This document shows positions 10,474-37,959 of a stretch of DNA of 46,394 bases, piece by piece. Positions within the stretch are counted from its first letter, which is position 1; each line of letters starts with the position of its first letter. The DNA is from a bacterium. GTDB lineage: Bacteria > Patescibacteriota > Dojkabacteria > JAKAPS01 > JAJZLI01. The notes beneath the pieces are model-generated. The model made no database searches and was not told the DNA's origin. It saw only the letters and a list, made by a program, of their open reading frames with translations. The translations under genes and the position numbers were made by a program. The stretch lies in contig DAHXLB010000010.1 in NCBI GenBank assembly GCA_027371855.1, forward strand, positions 1 to 46,394, read 5' to 3'.

Positions 10474-10518
10474 GGGTCTATATCCTTCGGTGCTGAGTAC
10501 CTTGGTACTGAGTACCTT
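10474..10518. repeat. Intergenic array of three ~15-bp palindromic units
   Basis: GGGTCTATATCCTT (10474-10487), GGTGCTGAGTACCTT (10489-10503) and GGTACTGAGTACCTT (10504-10518). GGTACT-G-AGTACC is a perfect inverted repeat. Confidence 0.85.
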
Positions 10519-11153
10519 TAGTCTTTTATTAATTTTCTAAATCTAAAATATTCTGTTAATTTTAAAGAAGTTACTCTTCCAATGTATAGATCAAATATTA
10601 TTGCAATAAGTGATAAAATAGGATACTTTAAAATTATAGTTCTAAAATCAGAAGATCCAATCATTATATATATCAATAGTCCAATTATTATAGTTTGGAT
10701 ATATATATAATTTCCATGTCGTTCACCTTTCTTAATTTTTATTGTAGCCAAAGATTCTCCAAGTAACATTAGTATTAATATTGCATATATTGACACTTCA
10801 TGATGATAATTAAACAATGCATGTGCACTATATAAAGATGCTATTATTGCAAATGATATAAAAGATATTGTTAAAGCTTCTTTAGCTGTGTGATGTAGAG
10901 TGAAATTTTTGATTAAATATCTTAATATAATCTCAAAAATCAGTATATATAAAACAAAAAATATACCATACAATAATCCTGTTGCAAAGAAAGCTAATAT
11001 AGAGACTACTGTTATATATAGATTAAATGTTTCAAATCCTATTATTTGCCTTATAAAAACTATAAATAATGCTATAACGGGTATGGCTAGCAATATATAT
11101 AATGCGTTTTGGTTAATCCCAGATTGTATTAAAAACAAAGATAATTGTCCCAT
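10518..11153 (-). CDS. 7TM-domain protein of the type associated with ATP-grasp/transglutaminase systems
   Basis: FIRQIIGFETF, C-terminal LKLTEYFRFR motif, ~7 TM helices; lies upstream of the ATP-grasp gene. Confidence 0.8.
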   Translation of the reverse strand: MGQLSLFLIQSGINQNALYILLAIPVIALFIVFIRQIIGFETFNLYITVVSILAFFATGLLYGIFFVLYILIFEIILRYLIKNFTLHHTAKEALTISFISFAIIASLYSAHALFNYHHEVSIYAILILMLLGESLATIKIKKGERHGNYIYIQTIIIGLLIYIMIGSSDFRTIILKYPILSLIAIIFDLYIGRVTSLKLTEYFRFRKLIKD

Positions 11154-11261
11154 ATTGTCCTATAATATTTTAAACTATCTGTATATACCATATTTTAGAT
11201 AGATTTGTCTATTATTATAGTAGTGGATAAGAATATATTTGTAAATAAAATATACTTAATT

Positions 11262-12176
11262 TTATATTAAAAGTTGTAATAGATCTTTTAATTCTGGAGT
11301 TTTTAATTTTTTCAAGGCTTGATATTCAATATTTCTAACTCTTTCTCTTGTAATTCCCAATTTTAAAGCTATCTCTTGTAATGTTTTTTGAGAGTTTTCA
11401 TCAAGTCCAAATCTAAGTTTGATTACAGTTCTTTGTTTTTCTGTTAAGTTTGCCCCATCTAAAATAGTGTAAAATTTCTCTTTAAATTCTTTCTGAACAA
11501 CTATTTCTGTTGCAAGAATATCTGGTGGAGGAAAGCTTTTATCTTCTATAAAATCACCCAGTTCCGCCTCCATTTCATTTCCTATTGGCGTAGATAAAGA
11601 GATCGGTTGTATTGAGGTTACATGAATGTCATGAATCTTTTTTTCTAGAATTCCTGTTTCTTCCCCAATTTCATCTTCATACGGAGATCTTCCAAGTGCT
11701 AATGATAAAGTATTTCTAACACTTTGTATTTTATGTATTATTTCCGTACGATGTAGAGGTATTCGTATAACTTTATCTTTGTCTGCTATAGCTCTTGTTA
11801 TAGCTTGCTTGATCCACCAAGAAGCATATGTTGAGAATTTAAATCCAAGTTTGTAATCAAATTTTCCTACAGCAATCATTAATCCTATATTACCTTCTTG
11901 TATAAGGTCAAGTAGCATTAATTTTTCGGTATGATATTTTTTTGCAATTGATACAACAAGCCTTAAATTTGACTCTGCTAAAGACTTTTTAGCTTTAATA
12001 ACTTCCTCTGGAGTACCTGATTCAATTTTCTTACCTAATTCTACTTCTCCTGCTCTAGTTAAAAGTGGAAATTGTCTGATTTCTTGTAGATAAATTTTTA
12101 CTGGATCTAGATCGGTTGTGTTATCTAAGTACTCCACAAATTCATTACATTCTGATTCTTCTTTAAAAACTTCCAT
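11262..12176 (-). CDS. RpoD-like sigma70 factor, paralog 3 (no region 1.1)
   Basis: [10 protein letters not shown] (region 1.2), [38 protein letters not shown] and TRERVRNIE. Confidence 0.92.
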
Positions 12177-12196
12177 AATATTTAATAGACCTTATA

Positions 12197-12225
12197 ACTA
12201 TATTACGACCCATAGTATTAGTCAA
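12197..12225 (-). promoter_or_regulatory. Sigma70 promoter for sigma paralog 3
   Basis: TTGACT, 17 bp, TATAGT on the minus strand, ~20 nt upstream of the ATG. Confidence 0.65.
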
Positions 12226-12230
12226 TGATT

Positions 12231-13121
12231 TTAGATATAATCACGTAATGTCCGTAAAACTTCTTCAGTTCTTAATTCGTTCAAAACTTTAGATTCAATC
12301 TGCCTTATTCTTTCTTTTGTTAGTTTAAATTCTTTTCCAATCTCCTCAAGTGTTCTAGTTATGCCATCATTAAATCCAAATCTTAGTTCTATTATTCTTC
12401 TTTCTCTCTCTGATAATTGTGATAATAGTTGACTAATTTTTTCTTTTAGAAAATCTTGAGCTACTATTTCATCGGGGGGTATATTATTTTTTGATATAAC
12501 AAACTCACCTATAGTAGTAGACGTAAAGGTAGAGGGAGCATAATTCTCTGTACTTACTGGAGTTGATAACGAGATAGGGTATTGAGACATGCTTATAATT
12601 TGTTGGATTTTCTCAGCAGGCTTTCCTATTTCCTCAGCTATTTCATTTAGAGAAGGTTCTCTTTGAAGGTTTTGAGAAAGTATATTTCTTAACCCATTTA
12701 TTCTTTTACTATAGATTATAACGTTGTGTGGTATACTAACGCTTCTGGCTTGTGGGCCTGCTCTTTCAATAAAATGTTTTATCCACCATGTCGCATAAGT
12801 GGAAAATTTATACCCTTTTTTATAATCAAATCTTTCCACGGCTTTTATGAGCCCAAGATTTCCCTCTTGTATTAAATCAAGTAAATCTAGTCCGCAAGAG
12901 TTATATGCTCTCTTTGCAAAATATACAACTAGCCTTAAATTAGCAATAGTTAATTGTTCTGCAGCTTCTATATCACCTTCTGCCATTTTTTGACCTAATT
13001 TTACTTCGGCCTCTTTTGTTAGAAGAGGTATTGTATAAACTTCTTCCAAGTAGGCATCTATAGGGTCTACCATAATCTTGCCTGGTTCATCTTGATAATA
13101 TCTTGTTTTTAAAATCTCCAT
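12231..13121 (-). CDS. RpoD-like sigma70 factor, paralog 2 (divergent regions 2.4/3.0)
   Basis: [46 protein letters not shown] and TKERIRQIE. Confidence 0.92.
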   Translation of the reverse strand: MEILKTRYYQDEPGKIMVDPIDAYLEEVYTIPLLTKEAEVKLGQKMAEGDIEAAEQLTIANLRLVVYFAKRAYNSCGLDLLDLIQEGNLGLIKAVERFDYKKGYKFSTYATWWIKHFIERAGPQARSVSIPHNVIIYSKRINGLRNILSQNLQREPSLNEIAEEIGKPAEKIQQIISMSQYPISLSTPVSTENYAPSTFTSTTIGEFVISKNNIPPDEIVAQDFLKEKISQLLSQLSERERRIIELRFGFNDGITRTLEEIGKEFKLTKERIRQIESKVLNELRTEEVLRTLRDYI

Positions 13122-13200
13122 AATGAAATTATTAAATAACCTAGTGATTATACTATATATTCATAAAATTTATTAATATTAGTGTTTGATATGGTTATTT

Positions 13201-14316
13201 TTATATATAATCTTGGAGGATTTGTTTGACTTCTTTAGTGTTTAGTTTTTTTAAAGCCTTAGATTCAATTTGCCTAATTCTTTCTCTTGTTACTTTAAAT
13301 TCTCTTCCAACCTCTTCAAGAGTTCTTGCAACACCGTCTTGAAGTCCAAATCTTAATTCTATAACTTTTCTTTCTCTATCAGATAAGCCTGATAAAACAT
13401 CACTAATCTGATTTTTTAGAAAATCTTTTGAGGCTACTGCTTCTGGCAATGGGTTATCTTCATCTGCAATAAAATCAGCTATTGTACTTGATCCAGATCC
13501 GTCATCTCCTACAGGAGTTGACAGTGAAGTAGGGTATTGAGATATCTTTATAATCTCTTCAACTTGATCTACAGTTTTACCCATCTCTTTAGCTAATTCC
13601 TGTGACGATGGAGCTCTCTGTAGTTTCATAGATAATGTACTTCTAACTTTTTGAAGTTGATGAATAGTTTCAATCATATGAACAGGGATTCTGATTGTTC
13701 TTTCCTGATCTGCAATAGCTCTTGTTATTGCTTGTCTGATCCACCATGTAGCGTAAGTTGAGAATTTATATCCTCTTGTATAATCAAATTTATCAACAGC
13801 TCTCATTAATCCTATATTACCCTCTTGAATTAGGTCAAGAAGACTCAAACTGCCCCCTTTATAATATTTTTTGGCAATTGATACGACTAGTCTTAAATTT
13901 GCAGTAGTTAAATATTCTGTTGCTTCTTTATCACCACTTTTTATTCTTTTAGCAAGTACTACTTCTTCCTTTCCTGTTAGAAGTGGGATTTTTCCTATTT
14001 CTTGAAGGTATGCTCTTATTGGGTCTGAGTCAATATTAGATTGTATGCTTTTTAGTATCTTAATCTTGTCCTCTAGAGTTATATCTTCTTTTTTTACAGC
14101 TACTGGTTTTTTAGATTTATCTTCGTAATCATCTTCCTCATATATAATTTCTAAATTTTGCTTTGCTAACTCAATAAAAAGCAAGTCAATATTGTCAATA
14201 TTGTTTTCAATATATGGGATTTCACTCAAAACGTCTGATTCTAATAGATATCCTTTGTTTAAAGCAAGAGTCAACAACTTTTGTATTGATTTTTGGGTAA
14301 GCTGAGGTTCCATCAT
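13201..14316 (-). CDS. rpoD: Primary sigma factor RpoD/SigA
   Basis: Region 1.1-like N-terminus (KGYL), canonical [28 protein letters not shown] and TRERIRQIE. Start moved from TTG 14346 to ATG 14316 because an extended -10 (TGaTATAAT, 14327-14335) lies between them. Confidence 0.95.
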
Positions 14317-14378
14317 AAGCTTCTTAATTATATCATATATTGTCAAATAATTTATATGTTATATAATCAATTCTACCT

Positions 14379-15281
14379 ATGAATAAAGATATTGCTATAT
14401 CAGATATCCTAACCCAAATAAGAGATTCTATTTTTATTATTTTTAGAAATACTAATCTTTTATCCCTTTCTTTTATTTCTTTAGCTTTGTTTTCATTGAT
14501 ACCACTTTTATACTTTTTATTTACACATTATGTAGTTAAAAATCATAACACAAAATACATACTACATTTAATATCTAATTTTAATATTTTTATTATATTA
14601 CTAATATCATTTATAGTACTTATATACATTATACTAGGAACGTTTTTTTTCTATTTTATTCAAGCTTCTATAGTAAAAAGTATGCTTGATGAAAAATATT
14701 GGGGAAAAATATACCCTATTAAATCTTTCATTTCAAATGGTAGAAAGATTGCAGTTTCATATTTTATATATGAGATTATTTTCGCTATAGTTACAACTTT
14801 TTTATTTATACTATATATATTAGTTGTTATTGTGATAGCGCTTATTCCTTATATAGCATCTTTAATATTTTTGCTTGCACTGGTTCTGCTAGTTTTGTCT
14901 TTGCTATATCTAATATCAGTAAATATGCTAGGTATAATGCTTGTTTGTGATCAAGATATGGATATCATAGATGCTATGAGGATATCCTTTATGAGTGTTT
15001 ATAAAAACATGAGAATATTTTTCAAAATAACGGGTATATTTATATTGTACCTATTGTTCTTTATAGTTTTAATAAGTTCAATTGGTAGCATGGCTATTTC
15101 AGTGATTTCGTATTATTCACATATGGGTATAGCTATGTTTTCAATATTAATTATCTTAGATTTCATACTAATGACATTGCTATATTCTTTTATAAATATA
15201 TTTATTTTAACTTTTTGGGTTGGTATATATATAAAACTAAAAACTTTCAATATATTCATGTTGACAAAAACTATGGGATAG
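14379..15281 (+). CDS. Multi-pass membrane protein, hypothetical
   Basis: About 6 TM helices; includes DIIDAMRISF, a motif seen in uncharacterised membrane families. Confidence 0.7.
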   Translation: MNKDIAISDILTQIRDSIFIIFRNTNLLSLSFISLALFSLIPLLYFLFTHYVVKNHNTKYILHLISNFNIFIILLISFIVLIYIILGTFFFYFIQASIVKSMLDEKYWGKIYPIKSFISNGRKIAVSYFIYEIIFAIVTTFLFILYILVVIVIALIPYIASLIFLLALVLLVLSLLYLISVNMLGIMLVCDQDMDIIDAMRISFMSVYKNMRIFFKITGIFILYLLFFIVLISSIGSMAISVISYYSHMGIAMFSILIILDFILMTLLYSFINIFILTFWVGIYIKLKTFNIFMLTKTMG

Positions 15282-15289
15282 TTTATACT
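15261..15289 (+). promoter_or_regulatory. Near-consensus sigma70 promoter for two small ORFs
   Basis: TTGACA (15261-15266), 17 bp, TATACT (15284-15289). Confidence 0.8.
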
Positions 15290-15319: not shown

Positions 15320-15502
15320 ATGGATGAAAGATTGACTAGACTAAATGGTGATGAGTTACTTTCACCTAGTGAGGAACATGAGAGGAGATCTGAGAATGGA
15401 TATTTGTTAGAGGTTGAAAAAGCTATAAAGGATTCTAGGACTGAGAATGAGAGAAGAAGAAGGATTCATGAAATAAATAGAAAATATTCAGAGTCAAGAT
15501 AA
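15320..15502 (+). CDS. Small highly charged hypothetical protein
   Basis: 60 aa, Glu/Arg-rich, purine-rich coding bias, strong upstream promoter. Confidence 0.6.
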   Translation: MDERLTRLNGDELLSPSEEHERRSENGYLLEVEKAIKDSRTENERRRRIHEINRKYSESR

Positions 15503-15526: not shown

Positions 15527-15727
15527 ATGGGAATAGAAGAAGAAATATATGTTGTAGAAGTTGATGAAAGTGCAAGAAGAATTTTGGAACAGAAGCGTGC
15601 TATAGTTGTGGGGAAAGCTATAGATGGAACAGATTTAAGCTCAGATGAGCAGAGAATGTTAGAAGAACTGTATAGAGAGGTGGATGGAGTAAGAGAGGGA
15701 GATCCGGAAGGTTGGTATGGAGAATAA
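15527..15727 (+). CDS. Small acidic hypothetical protein
   Basis: 66 aa, Glu/Asp-rich, co-oriented with the previous ORF. Confidence 0.6.
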   Translation: MGIEEEIYVVEVDESARRILEQKRAIVVGKAIDGTDLSSDEQRMLEELYREVDGVREGDPEGWYGE

Positions 15728-35214: not shown

Positions 35215-35556
35215 TTATTTTTTGTAGTGAAATATTGTAACATCCTTTGCAGGTAATCCAGTTTGATTATCAATTTCTTTGTTAGGGGTCACGGAGACTT
35301 CATCCATCTCTTCATATGGGAGTACCATTGTTAACCGCCCTCGACGCAGTAGAAGTGTTTTATCATATGCTTCTATTTTAACTTCTTTTGTTACCCTAAA
35401 TATACTGATCACACCATTTGTGTGTTTAACAAATATATGTAAATCAGGGTTTTGTTGAAGAATACTAGAATCCATATGTTCTCGTATGCATCTGAGCATT
35501 TCTAACGTTACTCTACCCAATATTTCTTGTTCTGGTGTATGAGATTCTATCTCCAT
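35215..35556 (-). CDS. Hypothetical protein
   Basis: 113-aa ORF with higher GC than its neighbours; TATAAT 5 nt upstream of the ATG. Confidence 0.65.
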   Translation of the reverse strand: MEIESHTPEQEILGRVTLEMLRCIREHMDSSILQQNPDLHIFVKHTNGVISIFRVTKEVKIEAYDKTLLLRRGRLTMVLPYEEMDEVSVTPNKEIDNQTGLPAKDVTIFHYKK

Positions 35557-37518: not shown

Positions 37519-37959
37519 TTAAGGGTTATTAATTTCATCAAAAATTGTTATTAGTGTTTGGATTTCTAATTCAGTAGTTCTTGTTAATCCTAAATATCTT
37601 TCTAATTTTAGAGGATTAGATATTGGACCGTTACTTTTTAATGGATACAGTGTTGAATACCTATCAACAGACATTATATAATTGTGTTGATTTAATTGAT
37701 ATTCACAATGTACTTTATTTTTTTGTATAACTAATATAGATACCAGTGGCACATCATCATTTGCATCTGTTCTTTGAGATATGTGTATTAAGTTTCCGCC
37801 TCTGAAAATTAGTTTACTTTTAATGCCTTCTGATAAATAAAACCGCGGCCCATCAGAAGCTACCCCAATAGTAGTTATGCTATCAATCACATCATATAAT
37901 TGATGTAAAGTTTGTTGTGAAGGGGGAGCACCATCTTTATAAAAGTCTAAATTCTCCAT
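37519..37959 (-). CDS. Hypothetical protein
   Basis: 146-aa ORF 10 bp downstream of purA; no motif recognised. Confidence 0.6.
   Translation of the reverse strand: MENLDFYKDGAPPSQQTLHQLYDVIDSITTIGVASDGPRFYLSEGIKSKLIFRGGNLIHISQRTDANDDVPLVSILVIQKNKVHCEYQLNQHNYIMSVDRYSTLYPLKSNGPISNPLKLERYLGLTRTTELEIQTLITIFDEINNP

Follow-up and report, generated by a model that had tools for sequence, protein, structure and literature searches.

Two RpoD-like sigma factor genes directly behind rpoD in one genus of Dojkabacteria

The known families of alternative sigma factors diverged from RpoD long ago, and those of group 2 read promoters very like those of RpoD. As far as the accessible text of one source goes, group 2 sigma factors are defined by RpoD-like domains 1.2 to 4, the absence of region 1.1 and dispensability (PMC4598750). 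Clostridioides difficile has a second RpoD-like sigma factor with its own regulated promoter, SigA2 (CD1498), which the accessible part of another source lists as group 1 (PMC7438776). For RpoD of Escherichia coli, two sources, likewise available in part, describe H455 and E458 as reading position -14 and R584 as reading position -31, and report that a Q437H substitution suppresses a T-to-C change at position -12 (PMC2613000; PMC8321222). Here we describe a locus in a stretch of 46,394 nt (contig DAHXLB010000010.1 of assembly GCA_027371855.1, hereafter the window) from a very small, host-dependent member of the Dojkabacteria (Patescibacteriota), in which two more sigma-70 genes, sigma B and sigma C, follow the housekeeping gene rpoD (sigma A). 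No account of this locus was found, at the level of abstracts, in the literature on sigma factors of Patescibacteria or the Candidate Phyla Radiation (CPR), RpoD duplication, neofunctionalization and effectors, subscription journals and supplements lying outside the scope. The reading we prefer, with belief and doubt about evenly balanced, is that B and C, which joined rpoD in the stem of a single genus, may be functional alternative sigma factors that the lineage can do without, B with an altered reading of the -10 element and C used conditionally.

Gene layout and distribution of the locus

In G000, a genome of 696 kb with a completeness of 82%, the window corresponds to contig C9, and a second genome of the same genus (G001) was used for comparison. 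All three genes are complete open reading frames (ORFs) on the reverse strand, arranged head-to-tail with intergenic gaps of 79 and 54 bp: rpoD (13201..14316; 371 aa), a housekeeping sigma-70 with an N-terminal region-1.1-like segment and 96.8% identity to its G001 ortholog; sigma B (12231..13121; 296 aa); and sigma C (11262..12176; 304 aa), the N-terminus of which is strongly acidic. B and C are 53% and 49% identical to their own RpoD, respectively, and the Pfam Sigma70 regions r1_2, r2, r3 and r4 are all above cut-off in each of the three proteins. An earlier reading of the DNA from sequence alone (the sequence-only reading) had proposed three adjacent sigma-70 genes, which the frames, the domains and the synteny in G001 bear out. 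It had also proposed that B and C, which extend from region 1.2 to region 4.2, lack region 1.1; the alignments agree, and neither gene can contain this region because the stop-to-stop frames are 309 aa and the gaps 79 and 54 bp. The same triple stands in synteny in G001, and in two further assemblies the proteins have consecutive accession numbers in the order A-B-C. In addition, contigs of run X9 span the A-B and B-C junctions, and contigs matching the locus with 0-1 differences were found in two mine-drainage runs from two studies and in one soil run, the possible source run X1 being excluded; no RNA run turned up among those carrying the locus, which speaks neither for nor against expression. 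Neither a terminator between the three genes nor an Rfam match anywhere in the window was seen. An AlphaFold model built for B (predicted local distance difference test score, pLDDT, 63.5; predicted template modelling score, pTM, 0.40) is of low confidence at the junction of regions 2.4 and 3.0, and its Foldseek matches confirm the sigma-70 fold only. Another sigma-70 region 2 match in G000 lies in a 174-aa frame on contig C38, a size which we take to be that of an extracytoplasmic function (ECF) factor.

The triple is present in both searched genomes of the genus and in 0/9 other genomes of the order, in each of which (completeness 73-96%) a query with B gave a single match, with no B or C found. 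In the other genera of the family, rpoD is the sole RpoD-like gene and is followed directly by a 7TM_transglut (RloB-like) gene in 7/7 genomes; the insertion of B and C thus took place in the stem of the genus that has them. In the window this ancestral downstream neighbour of rpoD is at 10518..11153 (reverse strand) and marks the insertion site. That B and C were not found in 9/9 other genomes of the order suggests that they may be dispensable at the level of the lineage. Orthologs of both occur in a protein collection from at least four more assemblies. A profile search with B against 1.84 billion representatives yielded one full-length high-scoring cluster (608 bits); the next three matches (376-308) consist of several stretches, and the next match in a single stretch scores 296. 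A metagenome scan and a genome scan gave seven loci each, L044 being the only B ortholog, and the next-closest named RpoDs to the locus are those of Ca. Dojkabacteria/WS6 (59-61% identity). The sequence-only reading had called such a locus unexpected in a reduced genome, which overstates the matter, since two or more RpoD-like matches were found in 35 of 300 sampled genomes of the phylum and three or more in six. When the 35 multi-sigma genomes were re-searched, none had an extra RpoD-like gene directly beside rpoD, the nearest being ~3 kb away.

Residue changes, selection and descent

Residues were scored, in E. coli RpoD numbering, at columns conserved in at least 85% of 40 primary sigma factors, using five B and five C sequences with near-duplicates excluded; regions 2.4 and 3.0 had been named in the sequence-only reading before the enrichment test. 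B has lost 15 of the 23 conserved columns in these two regions vs 9/90 elsewhere (Fisher p=1.7e-7; odds ratio ~17), and at eight of these columns every sequence has the same new state (K436, H437, F438, a deletion at 443, V450, H454, N455 and Y459). The substitutions listed for B beforehand (R436K, Q437H, T440E, a one-residue deletion at ~443, R451S, H455N, E458I and R584K) are all present in the alignment to E. coli RpoD, position 458 being I or L in B. Q437H is fixed in 8/8 B sequences; Q437 itself is retained in 40/40 primary sigma factors and in 39 of 41 other secondary sigma factors of Patescibacteria. Among the latter, changes at 455 and 458 are common (H455N in 20/41). Meanwhile, B keeps 12/15 columns in region 2.2, 11/13 in region 2.3 and 17/22 in region 4.2, where E585, R588 and Q589 are retained beside R584K. 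The melting residues Y430, W433 and W434 are retained in both B and C, as is the core-binding region 2.2 with 12/15 columns in each, both as previously read.

C retains Q437, T440, R451, H455 and E or D at 458, and the Q589N and K593Q reported for it are present in the alignment to E. coli RpoD. The residues are thus as listed; the claim that C has kept regions 2.4/3.0 and altered region 4.2 stands only so far, since the changes in 4.2 are not enriched (5/22 columns lost vs 11/91 elsewhere, p=0.30; 2.4/3.0 likewise, p ~0.3) and are variable instead of fixed. Position 589 is N, S or R and position 574 is Q, R or T among C alleles, and the allele P0365 is without R584 and E585. Therefore, region 4 of C looks relaxed, not rewired. 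The erosion of the two copies is complementary in post hoc comparisons: region 4 is kept at 26/32 columns in B vs 16/32 in C (p=0.017), and regions 2.4 and 3.0 at 6/23 in B vs 14/23 in C (p=0.036).

Both copies are maintained under purifying selection, yet evolve fast. A pairwise codon model of our own was applied to G000 and G001, covering 526 of 550 reciprocal best hits of 100 codons or more; the genome medians are 0.039 for omega (the ratio of nonsynonymous, dN, to synonymous divergence, dS), 1.47 for dS and 86.7% for identity. The dN is 0.016 for RpoD, 0.206 for B and 0.272 for C, so that the amino acids of B and C change 13-17 times as fast as those of RpoD. Ortholog identity is 65% for B and 59% for C, in the bottom 5% of the 526 orthologs. 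For omega, the upper bound is 0.066 in B and 0.073 in C, and likelihood ratios of 196 and 167 reject a value of 1. Since dS is saturated (5.9 for B, 16 for C), dN/dS by region is uninformative; dN over the genome-median dS is 0.14 for B and 0.19 for C. Frames are intact in all eight B and six C protein sequences aligned, and in a seventh C, and both genes have a codon use and third-position GC content typical of the genome. In a pair of assemblies that have the same RpoD, the identity is 95% for B and 78% for C.

B falls inside the RpoD clade of the family in all three full-length trees (supports 99, 100/99 and 100/100), as sister to the RpoD of the genus with modest support (90/71 and 91/76). 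It has the family-specific one-residue loop insertion between regions 2.1 and 2.2, and over its C-terminal half the identity is 50-54% with its own RpoD and 40-42% with the rest of the class. Judged by these features, B arose by duplication of the lineage's own rpoD. The sequence-only reading had argued for local duplication from visible DNA similarity. The four strings that it quoted, at 11880, 13807, 12291 and 13261, are indeed there; however, they fall in the most conserved motifs and are not diagnostic. As proof of duplication such similarity was rejected, because exact matches between this RpoD and that of other genera reach 44 nt and those between paralogs of one genome 13-19 nt. The identity at same codons is 0.57 for A-B and A-C vs 0.52-0.56 for other genera, with ~0.47-0.50 expected. 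No tract of recent gene conversion was seen between B and C; their same-codon identity is raised in G001 (0.63, z=3.4).

Both mixture-model trees put C outside the class (class clade 97/90 and 93/100), but approximately unbiased (AU) tests do not reject its local placement (p=0.135 for A+B+C, 0.165 for B+C, 0.45 under LG+F+R4). It is without the loop insertion of the family, has the outside-class states V98 and E381 and shows outside states at 10 of 16 family-diagnostic sites, and its core-binding N-terminal half is 63-64% identical to RpoDs outside the phylum and 61-65% to its own RpoD. It also has 10 derived sites in common with B and the family states S508, T518, S592 and T600. Quick trees of the two halves disagree, the N-terminal half grouping with an unnamed non-class RpoD (98) and the C-terminal half beside the family (82), which may reflect mosaicism or noise. 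No donor was identified in the searches or trees. A local origin of C and a mosaic or horizontal origin stand at roughly even odds.

Promoters and the spacer-box class

A promoter-like region of its own had been reported before each gene. Such regions are present and conserved in G001; individually, promoter matches are not above chance (18 found, 20.4 expected), and those at A, B and C are credible only because of this conservation. The putative promoter of rpoD is of the extended -10 type (TG-n-TATAAT; 14327..14335, reverse strand), and the TG-n-TA pattern is also found upstream of rpoD in G001 and seven other genomes of the family. Before B there is a putative -10 box, TATAAT without TG (13147..13155, reverse strand), 25 nt before the ATG in both genomes, with a -35 element that is not conserved. 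The putative promoter of C (12197..12225, reverse strand) is of the -35/17 bp/-10 type, with its geometry kept in G001, and contains an additional box in the spacer at 12215-12209. Across 270 pairs of orthologous upstream regions, conservation falls on canonical signals (TATAAT in 84, TG-n-TA...T in 70, TTG...TA...T in 69). A conserved inverted repeat, ATACTCAT...ATGAGTAT, was also noted in G000 upstream of the gene at C16:15714; the word ATACTCA is enriched in seven conserved upstream regions.

C shares its spacer box with a class of orphan genes. A search of orphan genes revealed a box with the consensus ~A(A/T)(C/T)TATAGG at a fixed position in the spacer of otherwise canonical promoters; the class consensus, TTGACA-AAAACTATAGG-n6-TATAAT, is found in three genera of the family. 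In the G000/G001 pair the box precedes 6/17 and 6/14 fast-evolving orthologs (at most 72% identity, C included), 0/76 and 0/71 conserved genes, and 2/39 and 2/59 genes without an ortholog; shuffled spacers give at most 0.1 expected matches. Matches to the strict pattern number 2-6 per genome in 6 of the order's 11 genomes, from genera g1, g2 and g5 (backward control 0-1). A slightly wider pattern occurs 1-2 times in nine of the other 55 genomes of the class, about as often as its control, and two f3 matches to it are near-consensus. Because genera g2 and g5 have the box, and neither B nor C was found in them, it predates the two copies and cannot be dependent on either; its occurrence there rules it out as a B- or C-specific promoter and as an antisense -10 element for B. 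A matrix built from the g2 and g5 sites only ranks the C promoter 5th of 235 in G000, and that of B 57th.

The proteins encoded behind the box have 60-500 aa, are soluble and have an acidic N-terminus; among them are RHS-repeat proteins, an alpha/beta hydrolase and others that belong to no family. No transmembrane-like window was found in 23 scored ones (0/23), and an Atlas search with one protein of the box regulon returned nothing above 0.84. Through the box, the many acidic orphan genes of these bacteria can be approached from sequence, and their products may be host-interaction proteins. A second putative promoter of the class of sigma C lies in the window at 15261..15289 (forward strand), before a 60-aa acidic ORF (15320-15502), and further sites in G000, with strands as signed, are C5:5403-, C5:74504+, C20:23836+, C20:36648-, C31:436-, C37:539+ and C43:2792-; the class is also represented at loci L160-L181. 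Other acidic orphan ORFs of the window, at 35215-35556 (54% to G001), 37519-37959 (62%) and 15527-15727, have neither the box nor a Pfam match. RpoD has E447 and H461 in exactly the box-bearing genera g1, g2 and g5 (L008-L014), whereas g3 and g4 have A447 and no strict box match; because only one or two evolutionary events underlie this correlation, it is merely a lead that RpoD reads the box.

Between sigma C and the 7TM gene there is a 33-bp element (11213..11245, reverse strand) that is identical in G000 and G001 and contains a sequence resembling what we take to be the DnaA-box consensus; at locus L040 a similar sequence sits between rpoD and the 7TM gene. The RloB-like 7TM gene shares the window segment 8256-11153 with an ATP-grasp/retropepsin fusion and a RimK-like gene, the latter in a slot that varies between genomes, with two distinct RimK-like genes (~30% identity) in G001, an ortholog in g3 and none at the g2, g4 and g5 loci. 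Elsewhere in the phylum, 16/16 genomes of family f36 have an extra RpoD-like sigma factor, a second sigma-70 of ~280-300 aa without region 1.1 (L101, L105-L107, L109, L110, L112, L113, L115, L116, L118, L120, L121, L124, L125, L138, L139), with W433Y, T440L, H455N and mostly E458D, and one genome has three such genes. This is apparently a family-wide alternative sigma factor, undescribed and unrelated to B and C. RpoD-like regions also occur inside very long frames of 1033 and 1277 aa in other Patescibacteria, at L129 (G126:C18) and G013:C17:114899-115765.

Possible functions and comparison with known sigma factors

According to the proposed mechanism, B should bind core polymerase through region 2.2, forming a holoenzyme, and open promoters by means of Y430, W433 and W434. 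With E585, R588 and Q589 retained beside R584K, it should read a TTGnnA-like -35 element; it would no longer read the -12 T and the TG extension as RpoD does, and we therefore propose that it directs polymerase to promoters that are different from, or overlap with, those of RpoD. By analogy with E. coli Q437H, these promoters probably tolerate C at -12; the laboratory phenotype of Q437H is only a lead here, because B has 14 further changes in 2.4/3.0. C, which keeps the -10 and extended -10 residues while its region 4 drifts, is therefore probably a -35-independent reader of extended -10 promoters. It appears to be wired into the older spacer-box class that drives fast-evolving acidic soluble orphans, and its expression is therefore probably specific to a stage or condition, not constitutive. 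Several results weigh against this picture. B is among the fastest 5% of orthologs, so that relaxation contributes, and half of its new states are variable (position 440, for example, is D, E or G). A B-type -12C class is hardly seen: TTG-N19-21-CA...T is conserved in 2/270 upstream pairs (five on the opposite strand) vs 69 for TA...T, -12G and -12A classes were not found in these pairs, and de novo motif enrichment recovered canonical boxes only. The B regulon, if any, would therefore be small, fast-evolving or missed by the approach. As for C, the g2/g5 matrix is the only independent test of its box, because the pattern had first been widened to admit its variants, and in G001 this matrix scores the C promoter weakly (3.9, rank 9/265). 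Finally, the birth of both copies from the local RpoD, the tandem triplication of the sequence-only reading, holds for B by clade and loop insertion; since the trees do not settle the origin of C, it is not shown for C.

The same evidence bears on other explanations. B and/or C could be decoys that compete for core and damp RpoD transcription, for instance in a free dormant stage, without having to initiate. We regard this as unlikely, even with region 2.2 kept at 12/15 columns in both, one of two DNA-reading modules eroded in each, an allele of C (P0365) without R584 and E585, and no target promoter class found for B. B retains the -35 helix and the melting aromatics among sequences of only 66-70% identity, and its fixed bulky residues H437, F438, H454, N455 and Y459 are ones that a pure decoy would presumably not need; the core-sequestering role suggested earlier thus fits B poorly. 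A little less probable still, in our judgement, are relaxed, partly redundant back-ups reading the promoters of RpoD, like group 2 factors or SigA2, with the substitutions as tolerated drift. This fits C well, and amino-acid rates 13-17 times those of RpoD, the canonical nature of the conserved promoters and the frequency of 455/458 changes in other secondary sigma factors all agree with it; the losses of B, however, are concentrated ~17-fold (odds ratio) in 2.4/3.0 and include the near-invariant Q437.

Improbable, in our judgement, is a host-directed role, in which C, and possibly B too, would be delivered to the host bacterium, attach to the core polymerase there and reprogram or throttle the transcription of the host. 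In its favour, the promoter class of C is also that of soluble, acidic, fast-evolving orphans, the core-binding half of C is about equally close to its own RpoD and to RpoDs outside the phylum (with V98 and E381), its alleles diverge fast (78% vs 95% for B, with RpoD identical), and TraG/VirB4-type ATPases are encoded in the genome. Delivery of proteins by the T4SS (type IV secretion system) of Patescibacteria has been speculated upon in the accessible text of one source (bioRxiv 10.1101/2023.05.02.539146); another, likewise available in part, favours import by this system, not export of proteins (PMC12102498). Against this role, an acidic N-terminus is what the acidic linker joining region 1.1 to region 1.2 would lead one to expect, and the outside-like states could also be explained by horizontal acquisition or long-branch reversion. 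Equally improbable is a bolder combination, in which C would be an export sigma factor co-regulated with effector-like orphans through the spacer box and pairing with host polymerase, and B a newborn sigma factor with a -12C/TG-less code serving a stage-specific symbiont programme. Decay or misassembly is close to negligible as an explanation. The low ortholog identities (65% for B, 59% for C) might hint at it, but open frames in every copy and an omega far below 1 rule out decaying pseudogenes, and the same order in G001, independent assemblies and run contigs rules out an artefact. If the preferred reading, that of working alternative sigma factors, is right, B would be a young natural example of the birth of a new sigma factor, and genomes of less than 1 Mb could be said to gain global regulators. 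The parent gene and the place of insertion are at hand, as are several alleles and outgroup genera that have no copy, so a gain of specificity would be testable residue by residue, with Q437H as one natural step.

Set against the described classes, gene A has the residues of group 1, although it scores 330 with TIGR02393 (cut-off 354) and has no Pfam r1_1 match, which its family orthologs have. B and C do not show the group 1 combination of region 1.1 and invariant Q437, H455, E458, R584 and Q589; the promoter-reading residues of B are not group 1-like, and those of C largely are in 2.4/3.0. Both have RpoD-like regions 1.2, 2, 3 and 4 without region 1.1, as in group 2. They score below all NCBIfam cut-offs for RpoS and SigB, neither joins RpoS in trees built without SigB and cyanobacterial sequences, and they score far below the cut-offs of the group 3 profiles (RpoH/FliA/SigB-F-G), B having 138-144 bits with RpoH models that require 241-323. 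Grouping of the paralogs with known group 2 or group 3 families, which the sequence-only reading had held to speak against it, was thus not seen in trees or scores. By architecture B and C appear to be young group-2-like alternative sigma factors belonging to none of the named lineages tested.

B and C resemble the other secondary sigma factors of Patescibacteria, such as those of f36, in size (~280-340 aa), lack of region 1.1 and altered region 3.0; however, the 18 of these placed in the tree stand apart from B and C, Q437 is kept by nearly all secondary factors of the phylum, and in 35 re-searched genomes not one sits directly beside rpoD. SigA2 of C. difficile differs in not being adjacent to sigA1, in the accessible text of its source (PMC7438776). 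With the group 2 factors (E. coli RpoS, actinobacterial SigB, Streptomyces Hrd, cyanobacterial SigB-E) B and C share domains and the absence of region 1.1, and may share dispensability at the lineage level; B further shares with RpoS the E at 440 and the loss of E458. In contrast to these factors, B and C are of independent and much younger origin, confined to one genus and placed directly behind rpoD, and B has an altered Q437 and a deletion in 2.4. Like RpoH and FliA of group 3, B has changed -10 and extended -10 reading residues on an RpoD-like scaffold, yet it is still 53% identical to its RpoD with region 2.3 intact. Compared with the E. coli sigma70 specificity mutants at Q437 and R584, it carries Q437H naturally.

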